From positions 17,987 through 81,986 of the forward strand of contig JAFSGU010000008.1 in NCBI GenBank assembly GCA_017440665.1: a stretch of DNA of 64,000 nt. The letters are read 5' to 3'. The position numbers and the translations under genes were made by a program. Below are positions 5,279 to 11,504 of this stretch, one piece after another. Numbering within the stretch: position 1 is the stretch's first letter; every line of letters starts with the position of its first letter. This DNA comes from Clostridia bacterium (lineage in GTDB: Bacteria; Bacillota; Clostridia; Oscillospirales; CAG-272). The notes beneath the pieces are model-generated. The model saw nothing but the letters and a program-made list of their open reading frames with translations, was not told the DNA's origin and did no database searches.

Positions 5279-6520
5279 TTATTCCGTGTAAATGGGGAAT
5301 TTTGCGCAGATAGCCATTACCTCGGCGGAAACGCGTTCGCGGTTACCCTCGAAGTCGCGTGCGATGTCGCCGATGAAGCGTGCGATCATTCGCATCTCAT
5401 CCTTTCCGAAGCCGCGGGTGGTAACTGCGGGAGTACCTATTCTGATACCGCTGGTTACGAAGGGACTCTGGGGATCGTTGGGGATCGCGTTCTTGTTTAC
5501 TGTGATGTGTACCTCGTCAAGTCTTTTCTCCATATCCTTACCGGTGATGCCGAAGGGGCGGAGGTCAACGAGCATAAGGTGGTTGTCTGTGCCTCCGGAA
5601 ACGAGTCGGAAACCTTCCTCGATCATTGCGTCTGCAAGAACAGCCGCGTTTTCGGCGATAGCGCGCTGATACTCGCGGAACTCCTCAGTGAGAGCCTCGC
5701 CGAAGGCAACTGCCTTTGCGGCAATAACGTGCTCGAGGGGACCGCCCTGGGTTCCGGGGAATACGGCCTTGTCGATCTTCTGTGCAAGCTCAGCAGTACA
5801 GAGGATAAGACCGCCTCGGGGACCGCGCAAAGTCTTATGAGTAGTGGTTGTGACTATATGTGCGTGCGGTACGGGACTGGGATGCACTCCTGCGGCAACA
5901 AGTCCTGCGATATGCGCCATGTCGACCATAAGGTATGCGCCGACCTCGTCTGCGATCTCACGGAGGCGCGCGAAATCGATGACTCTTGAATATGCGCTTG
6001 CACCTGCTATGATCATCTTGGGGCGGCATTCAAGAGCGGTTTCGCGGATCTTACCGTAGTCAAGCATCTCTGTGTCGTCGTCAACACTGTAGGGGACGAT
6101 GTTGAAATACTTGCCGGAAATATTTACAGGAGAACCGTGTGAAAGATGACCGCCGTGAGCAAGGTTAAGACCCATGACCGTATCACCGGGATTGACGAGG
6201 GCGAAAAATACCGCAAGGTTTGCGTTAGCACCGCTGTGGGGCTGAACGTTTGCGTGCTCTGCACCGAAGAGCTTTTTTGCTCTCTCACGTGCGATATTCT
6301 CTACAACGTCCACACACTCACAACCGCCGTAGTAGCGTTTGCCGGGGAGACCCTCGGCATACTTGTTGGTGAGGGGGGTGCCTGCGGCGAGGAGGACGGC
6401 TTTGGATACGATATTTTCTGACGCGATAAGCTCAATGTTATGCTGCTGACGCTGAAATTCCGCGTCACACGCTGCAGCTACCTCAGGGTCGTAATTTTTA
6501 AGTTCTTCGAAAAAAAGCAT
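5279..6520 (-). CDS. glyA: Serine hydroxymethyltransferase
   Basis: ORF 5279..6559. The start at [14 protein letters not shown] follows [16 protein letters not shown] and the PLP-lysine region [14 protein letters not shown] are diagnostic. Confidence 0.95.
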
Positions 6521-6576
6521 TTTTTGATTCCTTTCTGATTGCGGGCGTGGTCCCGCCAAAAAATAAACACGGGTTT

Positions 6577-6605
6577 ATTGTAACATATTTTTTCTGAAAG
6601 TTAAA
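6577..6605 (-). promoter_or_regulatory. Possible glyA promoter
   Basis: The minus strand carries TGtTACAAT (-10 is the complement of 6577-6582). The -35 is weak (TTTAAC) at a 17-nt spacing. Confidence 0.3.
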
Positions 6606-6874
6606 GGCTTTTATGAAAAAATCTGAGGAAAATTTTGAGTTTTTTTCAGCGTCCATGAGGCGCTTTTCAAGCATTGGCTGAAGCTCAAACTGACACGCCC
6701 GCGAGCAGGAACGGTGAGAGCGCGGTTCGCAGGTTGCACAAATGCACTTGTTAAAATGCTCAAATGTGGATTTTCAGTGAACGGTATCAGACGCGGCTGA
6801 TTGTGTAAATTGTACATCACATACAAATAAAGTTACAAAATGCATAGAAAACTCAAAAATATTCCAAATGAGGC

Positions 6875-6903
6875 TTGACAATCATGTTAAGTCATGATAT
6901 AAT
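6875..6903 (+). promoter_or_regulatory. Consensus extended sigma-A promoter driving the ORF-less region
   Basis: TTGACA (6875-6880), a 17-nt spacer, TG (6895-6896), then TATAAT (6898-6903). The upstream flank is A/T-rich (AAAAATATT). Confidence 0.8.
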
Positions 6904-7732
6904 AAAGACACAGAGAAGAGATGAAAACAAAAGGACCTGACAAGAGCCGGGTCGGAAATCATCAAATAAATTAAGGGAGGTGTCGGACATGATTTTCAGC
7001 AGTGTTAAGTTACGTGCCGTGTGTGAACGGGACAAGTACAGATCATCGGTCCCGACATATCCAATAAAACGTATTTAATATCGCGGCACGCAGACTAAGT
7101 TGACAAAAGGTCGGTGTGTCGCTTTTTCGTTCCCCGCAAGGCTCACAGAAGCAAGCGGAAGACCCGACAGCGCAAAGATCAAACACTTTTTGACACGGAA
7201 GCGGATCACGAAGTATTTTTTAAGTAAGACCTAAGGTTACCGAGGAGGGACCGCAGGAATTACACCTGCAAGGCAAAAGAAAAACCTGAGCGAGAAGTCA
7301 GATGCGAAGATAAAGCATATGACGAAGATAAGCAGAGGTGAATACAGACCGAGGCGGGTATCCGGTATGCAGTAAGCCGATGTGTAAGGCTTAGACGGTA
7401 TCATAAAAAATACGGGGCTCGGATAAAACTAAGGTTTGAGCTTATCGCGAAGATAAGTGTCCCGAACAAAACGGGAGAGCACAGATCAAGTACGTAGAAA
7501 ACTTCAGAAAACCTCAATACGGCCTTCGTTCCGAAATAACGAATAGAATTAATGAGATGGATTAGACGAAGATGTGATTGAATATGCGTAAAAGGGTAAT
7601 TAAAACTGAATAACAACTGAATAATAAGATGATCTTTAAAATAGATTTAAGCAGGTTTTTCGCAGTATCGTAGGAAAGGACCACCCGCATGAAAAACGTG
7701 AAAAACTTTATAAAAGCTAAAATCTAAAGAGC

Positions 7733-8114
7733 GGAGGTACACTCCAATGAACACGTTAAACTAAAACTCAGACAGTTTATAAGCTACAGAGAAAAGAAAA
7801 AGTATAGTCCGGTGAACTTACCGGCTTGAACCTAAGTCAAATAAGAATATCCGAAAACGATAAGAAACAGGTATGGACCAATGAACGGTTAAAACTAAAC
7901 TTATAAGTAAGATACCCGAACAAGTGGACAGATAGGTATACACCAATGAACAGTTAAGTTAAACGGATAAAAGTTATAAGTAAGTAATTCGGAAAAAAGG
8001 TACAGACCCATGAACTGATTAAGTAAAACCTAAATATCATCATCTAAGGACAGACGGTGGATCGATACCGTCAAGGAAAAACTCAGATAAAGGTACAGGC
8101 CAATGGAAAAGTAA
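7733..8114 (+). repeat. Degenerate tandem modules (R1-R5): AGG-hairpin-CC-AATG plus a mini-ORF. A sixth copy lies at 8409-8439.
   Basis: R1 7733 GGAGGTACACTCCAATGAACACGTTAAACTAA. R2 7869 AGGTATGGACCAATGAACGGTTAA. R3 7934 AGGTATACACCAATGAACAGTTAA. R4 7998 AGGTACAGACCCATGAACTGA. R5 8091 AGGTACAGGCCAATGGAAAAGTAA. R6 8409 AGGAGGATATCCAATGGACAATCAGTTTTGA. R2-R3-R4 are spaced 64-65 nt apart and also share TTATAAGTAAG between motifs. Confidence 0.75.
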
Positions 8115-8437
8115 AGTTCACACAAGAAAAAATAATCGGTTGAAGATCACGTAAGCGATTCTTTGGGAAAAGAAACACAAGCAAAAGTAAAAGCGGAATA
8201 ACCGAAATATATGTTAAATTAAGTAATTTTTCATGCCTCACATGATAAAGGTAAAATTATTAGCGTTCGCTTCAATGATCGTGGACCGAGATAAGAGAAA
8301 GGAACGTAAAGGACTATATAAAAATATATGTAGAGATAAACTCGTCAGATAATAACAGGCGAAATAAGTAAAGTAAGAAACACAACAGAATATAGGGTGA
8401 CGAAAGTCAGGAGGATATCCAATGGACAATCAGTTTT

Positions 8438-8472
8438 GACACCCCGGCCGTGATGAGGTCGGGGTGTTTTTA
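8438..8472 (+). terminator. Intrinsic terminator of the ORF-less transcription unit
   Basis: ACACCCCGGCC pairs with GGTCGGGGTGT in an 11-bp stem (one G-U pair) around the loop GTGATGA, followed by TTTTTAT. A-residues rather than a U-tract follow on the minus strand, so it is oriented for the plus strand. Confidence 0.85.
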
Positions 8473-8513
8473 TGCTTTCGTCCATCTTCAGCGTACTGTC
8501 TGCCGTCAATATG

Positions 8514-8550
8514 AAAAAGACGCGAACCCTGAATCGGTCCGCGTCTTTTG
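8514..8550 (-). terminator. Intrinsic terminator of the YidC-LtaS-like gene
   Basis: AAGACGCGAACC pairs with GGTCCGCGTCTT (one mismatch). On the minus strand it is followed by TTTTT, 4 nt after the stop at 8554. Confidence 0.75.
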
Positions 8551-8553
8551 AAT

Positions 8554-11362
8554 TTACTTTACTGTGGGAGCTACGTGCTCTTTCAGAACGACCCACGGAC
8601 GGTGAAGTACCCAATTCTCGGGATCGTATATATCGTCCTTTACGCTTGCCCAATATGATTCGTTGAAGGAGTTACCCTTGTGCGATGTGACGTCAAAGCT
8701 GCGGGAGATACAGATGAACTGATCGTGCGCTGTCTTTTCGTCGCTGTTTATGGGCTTTCCTGTAAAGGGATTTACGGGATCTTTGATAAGACCGCTCGCT
8801 GCCAGCGTGGGAACGTCTGCGTTTGTCATAAACTCATTTGACGTGACAAACTCACTGCTGCCGATCTCTTTTACCATAAGGAGGGGATAGTAAGCCTCTG
8901 TGTTTCTCAGGTCCTCGATGTGAGTCATCTCGTCCTCGTATTCGTCGAGCCAAAATCCTTCCAGATGGTTGATGTTCTGGCTTCCGTGGTCGGAAACAAG
9001 AATGATCTTGGTGTTGTCGTAGACGTTATTATCACGGAGGTAGTCAAACCAATCTGCAAGACGGAGAAGAGCTGATGTTAGCGTGGTAATGGAGCATCTG
9101 ATACTGCGTCTCAACCTTCAGCGTTACGCCGTCCACCGTGAATCTGTCAGCGTGTTCTGCGTCGTACTCCTCGTTGTCTACTACCTGAGAGGGTAAGTAG
9201 TCGGGGGTCTGCAGAAGGATGGGGTCATGGGTGGTATCGTTTGAGAGGAAGAGGAACGTGTTCTTTTTGTCGGATGATATTTTTGTCATCTGAGACATAT
9301 TGGCGAGCACGTTATAGGGATTCATGAAGATGGAGTCAAGGCCTGTCGCGTGGGAAAGATCCGTGCGCTCCTGACCTGCGTATTCTACGACTGCCGAGCT
9401 TGACTGCAGACGGTTGTAGGTTCCGTTGTCATAAACGAATCTCTGAAGAAGTGTGGGCATGGACTTCATAATGCCGAAGCAGAAGAAATTTCTGTGATTG
9501 CTGTCTATGGCTGACTGCTTCTGAACAGGATCACCGAAGACGCCCTTGGTGATGTATGCGTCAATATCGGGATACTCGTCGAATATGGAAAGATCGGGTA
9601 TCCATGAGTAGTTTGCATATGTGGGGTCGCATACCGTTACGTCAAAACCGTTTTCGGAGAACAATACCGGCATGACCTTCAGCGCCTCGTTATGCTTTGA
9701 GACAAGGGATTCTGTGTCTCTCTTGTTGATCTCAACGGGAGTGTACTCATATCCGCCCAGAAGTGCGGGGATCGCCATATTGGTCTTAGGCGCGAAGGAT
9801 ATCGTATTTTTGTAGTAGGTAAATCCTGCGAATCTTTCCGCAAGCTCAGGCTTTTCGGAGAAGATATAGGGTATATATTCACCCATTGCACGGTCAAGCA
9901 TTATGACCACCACGTTTTCACCCTCCGTGCTGAGGTCGAAGTTGGGAACTCCGTTTGACTTCATACTTTCTGCGGAGGTGAGGGTATTGACTGATGAAGT
10001 AATGGTGCTCACGTTGAGAACAGCCATGCCGAAAACTGCAACTGCCGCGGTCAAAAGCACCGTGGTGCAGACCTTCGTCCATTTCATGGAGATGAAGAGG
10101 AATACTGCGATGACTGCGATGATCACGAGAAGGTTGACAAGATGCTCCTTGCCTGAGAAGCTGAGTCCCGTTTCGTACTGAAGCTGAGCGGAAATGGTAC
10201 CGAGCTTTGTGCCGAAGAACATATAGTTTACGATGGAGACACCGCTGAGTATCCACATAAGTCTTGTGAAGAAGACCTTGCCGGCGGGATTTGCAAGCCA
10301 GTAGAACACGCCGAACCAGACGAGGAAGAAGCCCGCGCTCATGGCAGCAGTGCTTGCGATATACCACATGGGATTGTGGAAGTAGGTGACGTCGATGTAT
10401 TCAAGGGTAGATGCTGAGATATAAGCTGACGGGATGAGCACACCTACGAGGACTGTCATAAACACTCCGCCCAGGATGAACATTCCGGTGTTCGGACGGT
10501 ATTCCTTCTTCTTTGCGCACACACGTACCTTTGAACTGATAAGATTCAGTATCAGAGGAAGCATGAGAGCCGCACCCAGAAGTACGATGAAAGCCTTCTT
10601 TAAAACGGAAGCGTCAAAGAACACCGCACCGAATACAACACCCACGGCACCTACGGCAAAGGTGAGTATGCGAAGGACCTTCTGAGGATTCTTTATTTTG
10701 TAGAAAATGTTCTTTACAAGAGAGAAAACGTTATTGAGCGTCCAGTAGAATACAAGACCTGCGGGAGACGTCCAGAGGAAAACAAGGAAGAAAAGGGCGA
10801 TTCCGTAAAGCTGGAGCTTGGTCTTGAGCGGGAAGCCTTTCAGGTAGATGGCACTTGAGATAACGTTGATAAGTGTCATCAGCACAGGGAGCAGATTGAT
10901 GGCAAAGCCGCCGATGACGATAAGTCCGTCGGGCGAGCCAAGGTCTGCGATGGGACCGAATGACACACCGTTCAGTATGTCTAAGTGGGAGAGGAACTGA
11001 TATGCCGCCATAAAGAAGGGGATCTCCAACAGGAGCGACACCGAGCCGTTCAGCGATGACGTAGGCTTATAATTATTCTGCTTGTAGTACGCCTGAAGCA
11101 TCATCATTCGCTCGTCGCCGGTGAAGGTCTTTTTGATGTGGTCAACACCTGCCTTCAATCTGGCTTCGGTATCACGGGCCTCTTCCTGCATTGCATCCGC
11201 TCTTTTGTAAAGCGGAAGAACGAGGATGTTCATTGCAAGGCTCAAAAAGATTATGGCAAGTCCGGGGTTTGAGACGAATCTGTTGGCGATGCCGAAAATG
11301 ATCTCAAACACAAGCTTAAGCGGACCGATAAACAAGGTACTTAATATTGAAAGAATACTCAT
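8554..11362 (-). pseudogene. YidC/Oxa1 insertase domain fused to a polytopic membrane region and an LtaS/sulfatase-like domain, interrupted by a +1 frameshift near 9070-9076
   Basis: ORF 9044..11464 starts at MSILSILSTLF (11362, AAGGAGA RBS). Its N-terminal ~240 aa look like the YidC core (LPLYKRADAMQEE...PFFMAAYQFL...GLVFYWTLNNVFS), followed by further TM segments and VVVIMLDRAMGEY...FLFLSNDTTHDP. The same domain continues in ORF 8554..9114 (ALLRLADWFDYLRDNNVYDNTKIILVSDHG) in another frame. Joining them requires skipping 1 nt. Confidence 0.65.
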
Positions 11363-11504
11363 GCTTTTCTCCTTGGTGAAAAATATCGTAAGAGTATGCA
11401 GGTATTGCAAAAGCGTTCTTGCAACACCACTTATAATGATAACATATTTTGAAGAGAAAATCAAGGAGTTTGAGTAAAAAGAGAACTGTACGGAGTATGA
11501 TATA

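Follow-up and report, generated by a model that had tools for sequence, protein, structure and literature searches.

Sponge RNAs of the CsrB, RsmZ, and CrcZ type have a common overall architecture: a repeat RNA with its own promoter and terminator and without shared synteny. To our knowledge, CsrB-type sponges have not been reported in Clostridia. Minigenes of 2-8 codons are represented by bar of phage lambda and by others, for example in axe-txe (PMC8708949; PMC2490762). The type III antitoxin arrays ToxI, CptI, and TenpI are tandem repeats set between a promoter and a terminator, and cptIN is present in gut Lachnospiraceae (PMC3401426). Here we describe a transcription unit on the plus strand of a 64,000-nucleotide stretch (the window) from a Clostridia bacterium of the Oscillospirales (GenBank assembly GCA_017440665.1, contig JAFSGU010000008.1, positions 17,987 to 81,986), which has no long open reading frame (ORF) and lies beside glyA. 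From its sequence we rate the unit as a new kind of RNA locus, because nothing matching it was found in Rfam, in phage and plasmid collections, or in the full-text literature. The literature search found nothing describing its repeated motif, tandem arrays of Shine-Dalgarno (SD) sequences and mini-ORFs, start-stop elements, or such minigene arrays.

The most distinctive feature of the unit, overlooked in a first-pass annotation made from the sequence letters, is a series of RGGTAYRnnCCAATG modules arranged in tandem. Five copies are intact and a sixth is degenerate; after the RGGTAYRnnCC-A-ATG motif the frame runs for one to four further codons to a stop. The motif matched five times in the window, against 0.06 matches expected by chance. 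The copies are 68-74% alike and lie 52-134 nt apart (Table 1).

By synteny around glyA, the source is an uncultured, Oscillospirales/Acutalibacteraceae-like member of ruminant-type gut samples. Among 80 related genomes compared for this synteny, only one (L011, with a GlyA 95% identical) had a homologue. A search for close GlyA relatives gave four more loci (L081, L082, L083, and L090), with the gene order YidC-sulfatase/RNA/glyA, and a search with a small ORF of the unit gave one further lineage, L212. Module 1, with an SD duplex of -13.4 kcal/mol, encodes MNT[LFS][NSE] and stops at the same codon in 6/6 lineages. In the same six lineages, module 2 reads MN[GFSRD] and a stop (TAA and TGA alternating), module 4 reads MN or MN[GKR] and a stop, and module 5 reads ME[KGQ] or ME and a stop; module 3 has MN[SNKR] with TAA or TGA in five lineages and has lost its stop in one. 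The site of the degenerate module is occupied in the relatives by an intact AGGTATAGACC-AATG module (MN or MRS). The stop keeps its position across lineages while its identity switches between TAA, TGA, and TAG, and codon 3 is free to vary. SD strengths in the unit range from -5 to -15.6 kcal/mol.

Table 1. Features of the unit, in window coordinates
Feature	Position	Strand	Description
Upstream blocks	6739..6816	+	6739-6783 plus direct repeat ATTGTGTAAATTGTACA at 6800-6816
Sigma-A promoter	6875..6903	+	12/12 consensus; hexamers and TG invariant in 5 lineages
5' leader hairpin GACCUG/CGGGUC	6934..6953	+	Preceded by AAAACAAAAGG; compensatory changes
SD and 29-codon ORF	6975..7078	+	SD GGGAGGTG 6975-6982; ORF 6989-7078, encodes MIFSSVKLRAVCERDKYRSSVPTYPIKRI
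Structured core domain	7083..7735	+	Covariation, folding, conservation
12-codon ORF	7689..7727	+	MKNVKNFIKAKI; in 3' arm of long hairpin
Module 1	7733..7764	+	GGAGGT SD, 8-nt spacer ACACTCCA, ATG AAC ACG TTA AAC TAA (MNTLN)
Long-range helix, 5' strand	7775..7810	+	Segments 7775-7780, 7784-7788, 7802-7810; pairs with 8311-8341
Degenerate module	7802-7810 (its SD/spacer)	+	AAGTATAGTCC-GGTG in window
Module 2	7869..7892	+	AGGTATGGACCA ATG AAC GGT TAA (MNG)
Module 3	7934..7957	+	AGGTATACACCA ATG AAC AGT TAA (MNS)
Module 4	7998..8018	+	AGGTACAGACCC ATG AAC TGA (MN)
Module 5	8091..8114	+	AGGTACAGGCCA ATG GAA AAG TAA (MEK)
Conserved blocks	8157..8262	+	GCGATTCTTTGGGAAA 8157-8172, and 8205-8262
Long-range helix, 3' strand	8311..8341	+	GGACTATAT 8311-8319, TGTAG 8329-8333, ATAAAC 8336-8341
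Terminal module	8400..8439	+	GAAAGTCAGGAGGATATCCA ATG GAC AAT CAG TTT TGA (MDNQF)
Intrinsic terminator	8438..8473	+	12-bp GC-rich stem, 7-nt loop, T-run

Metagenome contigs were scanned with a two-module DNA pattern that required ATG in both neighboring modules, and at least 120 loci were returned. L114, L116, L135, L137, L144, L155, L164, L169, L173, L174, and L180 were set aside as unrelated repeats or chance matches. The remaining matches form several sequence families, mostly from human-gut Blautia, and a hidden Markov model of the window clade matched metagenome loci over its array part only. By these sequence matches, the array half belongs to a much wider family in other Clostridia, with differing genomic contexts. 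The largest group, at least ~90 loci among the matches listed, has the synteny rnr-eno/array/pdaA. Its units, such as L103 7344-7995 and at least ~90 similar human-gut loci, are ~0.65 kb long and lie between a divergent enolase gene and a same-strand gene for a pdaA-like spore-cortex deacetylase. The PdaA-like protein downstream is 89% identical to one named 'delta-lactam-biosynthetic de-N-acetylase [unclassified Blautia]'. A family unit consists of a promoter, a short A-rich leader, 5-12 modules, a terminal module, and an intrinsic terminator, and all array families have TTGACA as the -35 and a -10 extended by TG, with an A/T-rich tract upstream. None of seven related loci had a match in Rfam in gathering mode.

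The consensus of 190 unique modules is AA-G/A-RAGGTAYRG(A/T)CCA-ATG-RAA-NNN-TAA. ATG stands at the fixed position in 132 of them, and in 165 the ATG frame meets a stop (TAA/TAG/TGA) after two or three codons, with no peak in the other two frames; from composition, the chance of a stop within three codons is ~0.2. The 51 unique Blautia-type units do not vary at AGGTA, ATG, or the stop triplet; the spacer and codons 2-3 do vary. We found no internal covariation within modules, and the predicted fold of an entire Blautia-type unit is no better than those of its shuffles (z = -0.95), both of which fit accessible single-stranded sites. A hairpin within the module (GGT/ACC or AGGTA/TACCT) was ruled out: A and T are about equally frequent at position +7, and covariation was absent from all column pairs. 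By their sequence, the modules have the hallmarks of accessible translation-initiation regions that run straight into a stop.

The reading we favor, at somewhat less than even confidence, is that the unit is a highly expressed decoy RNA whose initiation-region modules engage ribosomes and whose 3' end is coupled to translation. It would be a free-standing RNA gene, probably highly transcribed, with tandem decoy translation-initiation regions as its working parts. Each module would offer an unstructured A-rich stretch, an SD-like RAGGT, a fixed 8-nt spacer, AUG, an A-rich second codon, and an early in-frame stop. Ribosomes would load repeatedly on the modules without making protein, and the RNA would act through this engagement, buffering or reporting the translation-initiation capacity of the cell; alternatively, bound ribosomes might keep a long gene-less RNA covered. 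Strong expression, which the first-pass annotation had also proposed, is suggested by the quality of the promoter. The sequences directly show the layout of the unit, its conservation and covariation, the constancy of SD, AUG, and stop, and the spread of the family; from them we infer the level of transcription, translation of the mini-ORFs, and a role of the RNA as sponge or sensor.

The coupling of the 3' end to translation is proposed because the stop of the terminal mini-ORF falls within the base of the terminator hairpin. Two bases of the TGA (8437-8439) are also the first two of the terminator stem; the SD duplex of the mini-ORF has -11.0 kcal/mol, and the ORF is identical in five lineages save for one synonymous change, AAT to AAC. 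A ribosome finishing this ORF would melt or block the terminator hairpin. Homologous terminal modules, GAAAGT[CG]AGG…CC[AC][AT]TGGA, occur in Blautia-type, L201-type, and L138 units. In the family, terminal ORFs have 5-8 codons and stop at the terminator foot (four separate families in all); two families start it with ATG, and two others have TTG at that position.

A stop codon that overlaps a terminator is also what ribosome-mediated attenuators show, and in Blautia the pdaA-like deacetylase gene lies on the same strand 150-290 nt past the terminator. The unit could thus be read as a cis-acting leader or attenuator working through its terminal mini-ORF, or as a repeat antitoxin like those of type III toxin-antitoxin systems, whose ToxI/CptI arrays it resembles in having tandem repeats between promoter and terminator. 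We consider both versions very improbable. Against the leader, the next gene is convergent in the window and in all relatives, and a hairpin lies between them. This hairpin (8515-8549), which had been described as the separate terminator of the convergent gene and is indeed present, is flanked by an A-run 5' and a T-run 3' and for that reason looks bidirectional; it probably terminates transcription in both directions, insulating the RNA unit from the YidC-sulfatase gene. The antitoxin version is already contradicted: no toxin-like ORF follows any array, the neighbors being glyA, YidC-sulfatase, enolase, RNase R, and pdaA, and the repeats, spaced and diverged as given above, are not near-identical short units. 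A type III antitoxin was accordingly ruled out, the downstream genes being the convergent YidC+sulfatase gene in the window and the pdaA-like gene in Blautia.

Several observations weigh against a decoy that works on ribosomes. The hairpin at 8515-8549 would stop read-through, so attenuation of a downstream gene is not the purpose of the terminal ORF in the window. Modules 2-5 have only moderate SDs. About 30% of the modules outside the window clade have no ATG (CCA, CCG, AAG, or ATC instead), and the first two or three modules of Blautia-type units consistently read CCACC[AG], not CCAATG; the ATG required by our search pattern biases the ATG count, though not the stop statistics. The ATG-less modules retain TAA or TAG at the same distance in 46 of 58 cases, one of them switching from TAG to TAA between lineages, and this retention is not explained by translation alone. 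Oscillospirales and Blautia have the conserved 8-nt spacer UAYRG(A/U)CC in common, and the most invariant part of the folded core is an ATG-less, module-like block, AGGT-GAA-TACAGACC-GAGG (7336-7354), of which part is predicted to fall in an internal loop. Neither feature should be required of a generic ribosome site. The ATG-less modules, the spacer, and the block suggest a sequence-specific partner, beside the ribosome or instead of it.

A near-equal rival, which we regard as possible at rather low confidence, is built on such a partner. In it the RNA is a sponge for a sequence-specific trans factor (an RNA-binding protein or a small RNA) that targets the initiation region of some gene; the modules would mimic the SD, spacer, AUG, and second codon of the target, and the stop would be selected only to abort translation. 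The conserved spacer, the retention of all other conserved positions in ATG-less modules, and the invariant block in the core are in its favor. So are the copy number, which varies between close relatives by insertion and deletion of whole modules (as seen in Blautia-type units), and the combination of a strong promoter, an own terminator, and no shared synteny. On the other side, frame-preserving swaps between TAA, TGA, and TAG and the ATG/TTG swaps of the terminal module would be expected from selection on translation signals and not from a binding motif. A search of the window and of 1.86 Mb of fetched loci, a small and biased sample, turned up no isolated copy of the motif ahead of a real gene, and no candidate partner is encoded beside the array in any family. 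A CsrA sponge in particular was ruled out: GGA, found in module 1 and the terminal module only, is absent from most modules, and they have no conserved hairpin.

The boundaries of the unit agree with those in the first-pass annotation. The promoter (TTGACA 6875-6880, a 17-nt spacer, TG, and TATAAT 6898-6903) scores 12/12 with the TG extension and is the sole 12/12 sigma-A match within 6000-9500; an A-rich CTCAAAAATAT tract lies upstream, and the predicted transcription start is ~6910. The strongest terminator-like site is the hairpin at 8438-8468, whose stem has 12 pairs (8 G-C) and a 7-nt loop followed by TTTTT, and which carries a compensatory A-U to U-A change in L082 and L083. Promoter hexamers, TG, and terminator are conserved in the four other full-length lineages (L011, L081/L090, L082, and L083), and promoter and terminator are kept in every related lineage whose sequence extends that far. 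The claim of a dedicated unit that is not read-through thus stands. Composition was also as described: the 1563 nt contain 39.9% A, 62.8% A+G, and 39.3% GC, against 50% GC in the flanking genes. The unit is C-poor and is the most purine-rich stretch of its length (1.56 kb) in the window.

Sequence identity to L011, computed per 100 nt, separates the unit from ordinary spacer. It is 46-72% in true spacer beside the unit, 82-89% in the glyA coding sequence, 85-97% at 6979-7779 (in parts above the coding sequence), 58-81% with insertions and deletions at 7779-8379, and 94% at 8379-8479. The RNA unit is conserved beyond what is expected of spacer or of a pseudogene, and it is not unique to this genome. 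Conserved synteny, which had been proposed as a check, was found in part: the unit adjoins glyA only in relatives whose GlyA is at least 95% identical; where GlyA is 87-89% identical, other genes lie upstream and the RNA is absent from that place. The convergent YidC+sulfatase gene comes next in the window and its relatives.

A protein-coding gene or pseudogene was ruled out. Between promoter and terminator the longest plus-strand ORF has at most 44 aa, and stops recur 34-41 times per plus frame, both in line with what had been reported. No open frame of at least 45 codons is shared across the lineages on either strand, except the frame that holds the 29-codon ORF, and indels are not multiples of three. 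On the minus strand, the ORFs that the first-pass annotation dismissed are not conserved, and a gene there was ruled out by the public calls in two relatives, which diverge from each other by frameshift. These calls, L081 3350-3928 (+) of 192 aa and L082 3421-4023 (+) of 200 aa (equivalent to ~6560-7180 (-) in the window), cover the 5' end of the RNA and extend through the promoter. We take them as spurious because of their low complexity, non-ATG starts, and mutual frameshift divergence. An origin from phage or plasmid was rejected, since distant-mode blastn against 50,697 phage and 72,556 plasmid records was without a match.

No known RNA family accounts for the unit. A cmscan of the whole window against Rfam 15 (4227 families) at gathering thresholds gave 0 matches, and in E-value mode the region 6700-8600 gave only six chance-level matches (E at least 0.55), none to a large-RNA family; five of them were at the 3' end and four overlapped the terminator. 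As proposed from inspection, there is no match to OLE, GOLLD, ROOL, HEARO, or raiA. The description "non-coding or micro-ORF-only" was close in its second part; the unit is not functionally ORF-less, and besides the 29-codon ORF (30 codons in relatives) it carries seven or more other ORFs of 2-12 codons, each conserved and led by an SD.

The region from the leader through the core (6905-7735) is structured. RNAalifold on six lineages placed 211 pairs there with 96.5% of cells paired. Both sides change at 29 pairs, against 11.8±2.4 in column shuffles (0/500 reach 29) and 3-7 in slid controls. The covariation of the core is real; its overall topology is provisional, as it comes from six sequences only. 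The single-sequence folding z-score of the core region is -3.06. The best-supported core hairpins are 7297-7323, 7373-7393, 7440-7458, and 7460-7476; a long hairpin lies at ~7642-7725. The 12-codon ORF in this long hairpin keeps its start and frame in six lineages (the stop changes from TAA to TGA in one) and has an SD of -10.0 kcal/mol. The leader motif AAAACAAAAGG is common to Blautia units, and in the leader hairpin one C-G pair becomes U-A and a U·G pair becomes C-G.

Of six helices listed earlier, two hold: 7371 (7373-7393) is backed by compensatory changes and 7441 (7440-7458) by one-sided G·U changes. Three hold in part. The helix at 7252 changes from G-C to A-U in one lineage and has mismatches in others, that at 7809 sits in the degenerate module and is only partly conserved, and that at 8053 is retained in some lineages only. 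The helix at 7525 is uninformative because it is invariant.

Farther 3', a long-range helix of 20 bp in three segments, all 100% paired in five lineages, closes a domain of ~530 nt that displays modules 2-5. It has one compensatory change specific to the window (GTATAGTCC/GGACTATAT) and one-sided G·U changes at four pairs. The array half as a whole has no net covariation (term +0.84). The two conserved blocks downstream of module 5 are invariant or nearly so in five lineages amid an otherwise variable stretch. The second of them is predicted to form a hairpin and also includes a weak site resembling a promoter, TTTTCA-18-TAAAAT (8228-8257, 9/12), which could drive a separate short 3' RNA of ~220 nt.

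These structures raise the possibility that the unit is a large structured noncoding RNA (ncRNA) like OLE, ROOL, or GOLLD, whose function lies in the covarying core and the long-range architecture, for instance as a scaffold for a ribonucleoprotein, with modules and small ORFs accessory or incidental. Covariation in the core, the helix that encloses the array, folding z-scores of -3.1 and -4.4, an interior conserved above the neighboring coding sequence, and the lack of an Rfam match all agree with it. We nevertheless regard it as unlikely: the core is limited to a narrow clade (6 lineages, GlyA at least 95% identical), the array half contributes no net covariation, and modules, terminal module, and leader are the parts common to distant families, which have neither the core nor the 29-codon ORF. 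Because these three parts occur in core-less families, the window RNA looks like a family member with ~800 nt (small ORF and core) inserted between leader and array. Under the decoy reading, this addition of the window clade, with the helix around modules 2-5, suggests that the window RNA is a variant, regulated or scaffolded, of the simpler Blautia arrays.

The 29-codon ORF within the inserted part is intact in six lineages. Its SD duplex of -15.6 kcal/mol is the strongest of the region (the median is -7.7 for long ORFs and -3.9 for random ATGs), and its codon changes are synonymous in 7 cases and non-synonymous in 4. SD and AUG are paired with the 3' part of the ORF in a predicted 19-bp helix (6976-7062). 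The synonymous bias is confounded, because none of the substitutions in the ORF disturbs this helix; from its sequence the ORF is likely, not proven, to be coding. Among 1.84e9 representative proteins, the only relative of the peptide is P0122, from the same locus in another lineage. No family was found in Pfam or NCBIfam, a peptide-based scan of viral contigs gave no relatives, and an exact-protein look-up of the 32-aa ORF returned no record. P0121 (4271 aa), a giant protein of ~62-aa tandem repeats (SSVRFTVLCWNDSYLSNVPT…), aligns with residues 7-26 of the peptide at more than 20 places (42-58% identity); we judged this a chance similarity amplified by the repeats.

If the ORF is coding, the unit could be an ordinary mRNA for a basic protein of 29/30 residues with a long structured 3' untranslated region. 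The strong SD, the intact ORF, the excess of synonymous changes, and its annotation by gene callers in two assemblies speak for this. We think it quite unlikely, given that the bias is confounded by the enclosing hairpin, that the ~1.4 kb downstream are as conserved as the ORF, or nearly so, with conserved signals of their own, that related array families have no such ORF, and that the peptide has no Pfam or NCBIfam match.

Upstream of the promoter, the blocks at 6739-6816 are conserved in all 5 of the 5 lineages with upstream sequence, and the adjoining spacer diverges. They may be regulator sites or UP-type elements. L143 (999-2135 (+), from a JGI metagenome) is a second long member of the wider family, ~1.1 kb and purine-rich, with ~12 modules of three subtypes (5-codon MDTAK ORFs, MK ORFs, and ATG-less AAGGAG variants). 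At this unrelated locus ATTGTGAATTAATTGTA lies immediately upstream of the -35, and a regulator site may be shared between the two. On the other side of the unit, the YidC (60KD_IMP) + sulfatase gene, 8554-11464 (-), is split in the window into ORFs of 806 aa and 186 aa that overlap by ~70 nt. It is a single gene of 935-936 aa in L081, L082, and L083, and by this comparison the split is a frameshift, from a pseudogene or an assembly error. Downstream of glyA in L082 (6533-7612), the aspartate-semialdehyde dehydrogenase gene is likewise in two pieces (157 + 161 aa), compared with 359 aa in L081 and L083; this split is probably an assembly frameshift.

If the modules do engage ribosomes or an initiation-region factor, the unit would represent a new RNA-based way of regulating or buffering bacterial translation, present in some of the most abundant Firmicutes of the human gut and rumen. 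The function of the array can be tested directly, since Blautia species with the 0.65-kb version are cultured. A broader claim is more doubtful: that gut Clostridia (Oscillospirales and Blautia) hold a previously undescribed class of abundant minimal-cistron-array RNAs that capture initiating ribosomes, with a translation-coupled 3' end, to which the window member would add a small protein and a folded domain acting as sensor or scaffold. Whatever its function, the window member is among the longest conserved bacterial RNAs without a long ORF and with covariation support, its module array is an easily searchable signature absent from Rfam, and current gene callers set spurious antisense proteins over the unit.

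Compared with known systems, the unit is like CsrB/CsrC, RsmX/Y/Z, and CrcZ in being a free-standing RNA with many copies of a short motif resembling or overlapping a ribosome-binding site and no fixed synteny; the repeated motif, own promoter and terminator, 5-12 modules, and variable copy number are all found here. The repeated elements differ: GGA in hairpin loops in CsrA/RsmA sponges, A-rich ANAANAA for Hfq/Crc, and here an unstructured unit of ~25 nt made of SD, spacer, AUG, and stop. Minigenes of the lambda bar type share with the modules an SD, AUG, a few sense codons, and a stop, and they act by being translated and not through their product. The modules have this format (MNTLN, MNG, MNS, MN, and MEK in modules 1-5, MDNQF in the terminal one), but known minigenes are single elements in other transcripts with specific peptidyl-tRNA drop-off, whereas 5-12 are arrayed here in a dedicated RNA. 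The last sense codon is not conserved, which argues against the targeting of one tRNA.

STAB-SD elements (5' stabilizers) and the leader-peptide attenuators of Firmicutes likewise have non-productive SD-like ribosome sites, or a short ORF that occludes a terminator. They are single cis elements before a gene, whereas here such sites are multiplied and no gene follows in the window. A short-ORF stop within the terminator stem is found in the window, and three other families are alike; a same-strand downstream gene is found only at Blautia-type loci. Relative to type III antitoxins, with near-identical repeats of ~34-45 nt, the window repeats are longer, more diverged, and unevenly spaced. With OLE, GOLLD, ROOL, HEARO, and raiA the unit shares a Firmicutes or gut host, length, conservation, covarying helices, and the lack of a long ORF; it is longer, has no cmscan match to them, and half of it is an unstructured array of translation signals.

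RNAIII/hld of S. aureus, SR1/SR1P of B. subtilis, and SgrS/SgrT combine a structured regulatory RNA with a small conserved ORF. RNAIII is also large and modular, but its C-rich loops pair with the SDs of its targets, whereas the motifs here are SD-like and purine-rich, and the window unit is three times longer and carries arrayed mini-ORFs. A conserved SD-led small ORF and a supported structure are both present in the window unit, with coding and structural constraint inseparable. The unit is a candidate for this dual-function class and has the format of a minigene, and it fails a defining feature of each of the other systems compared.

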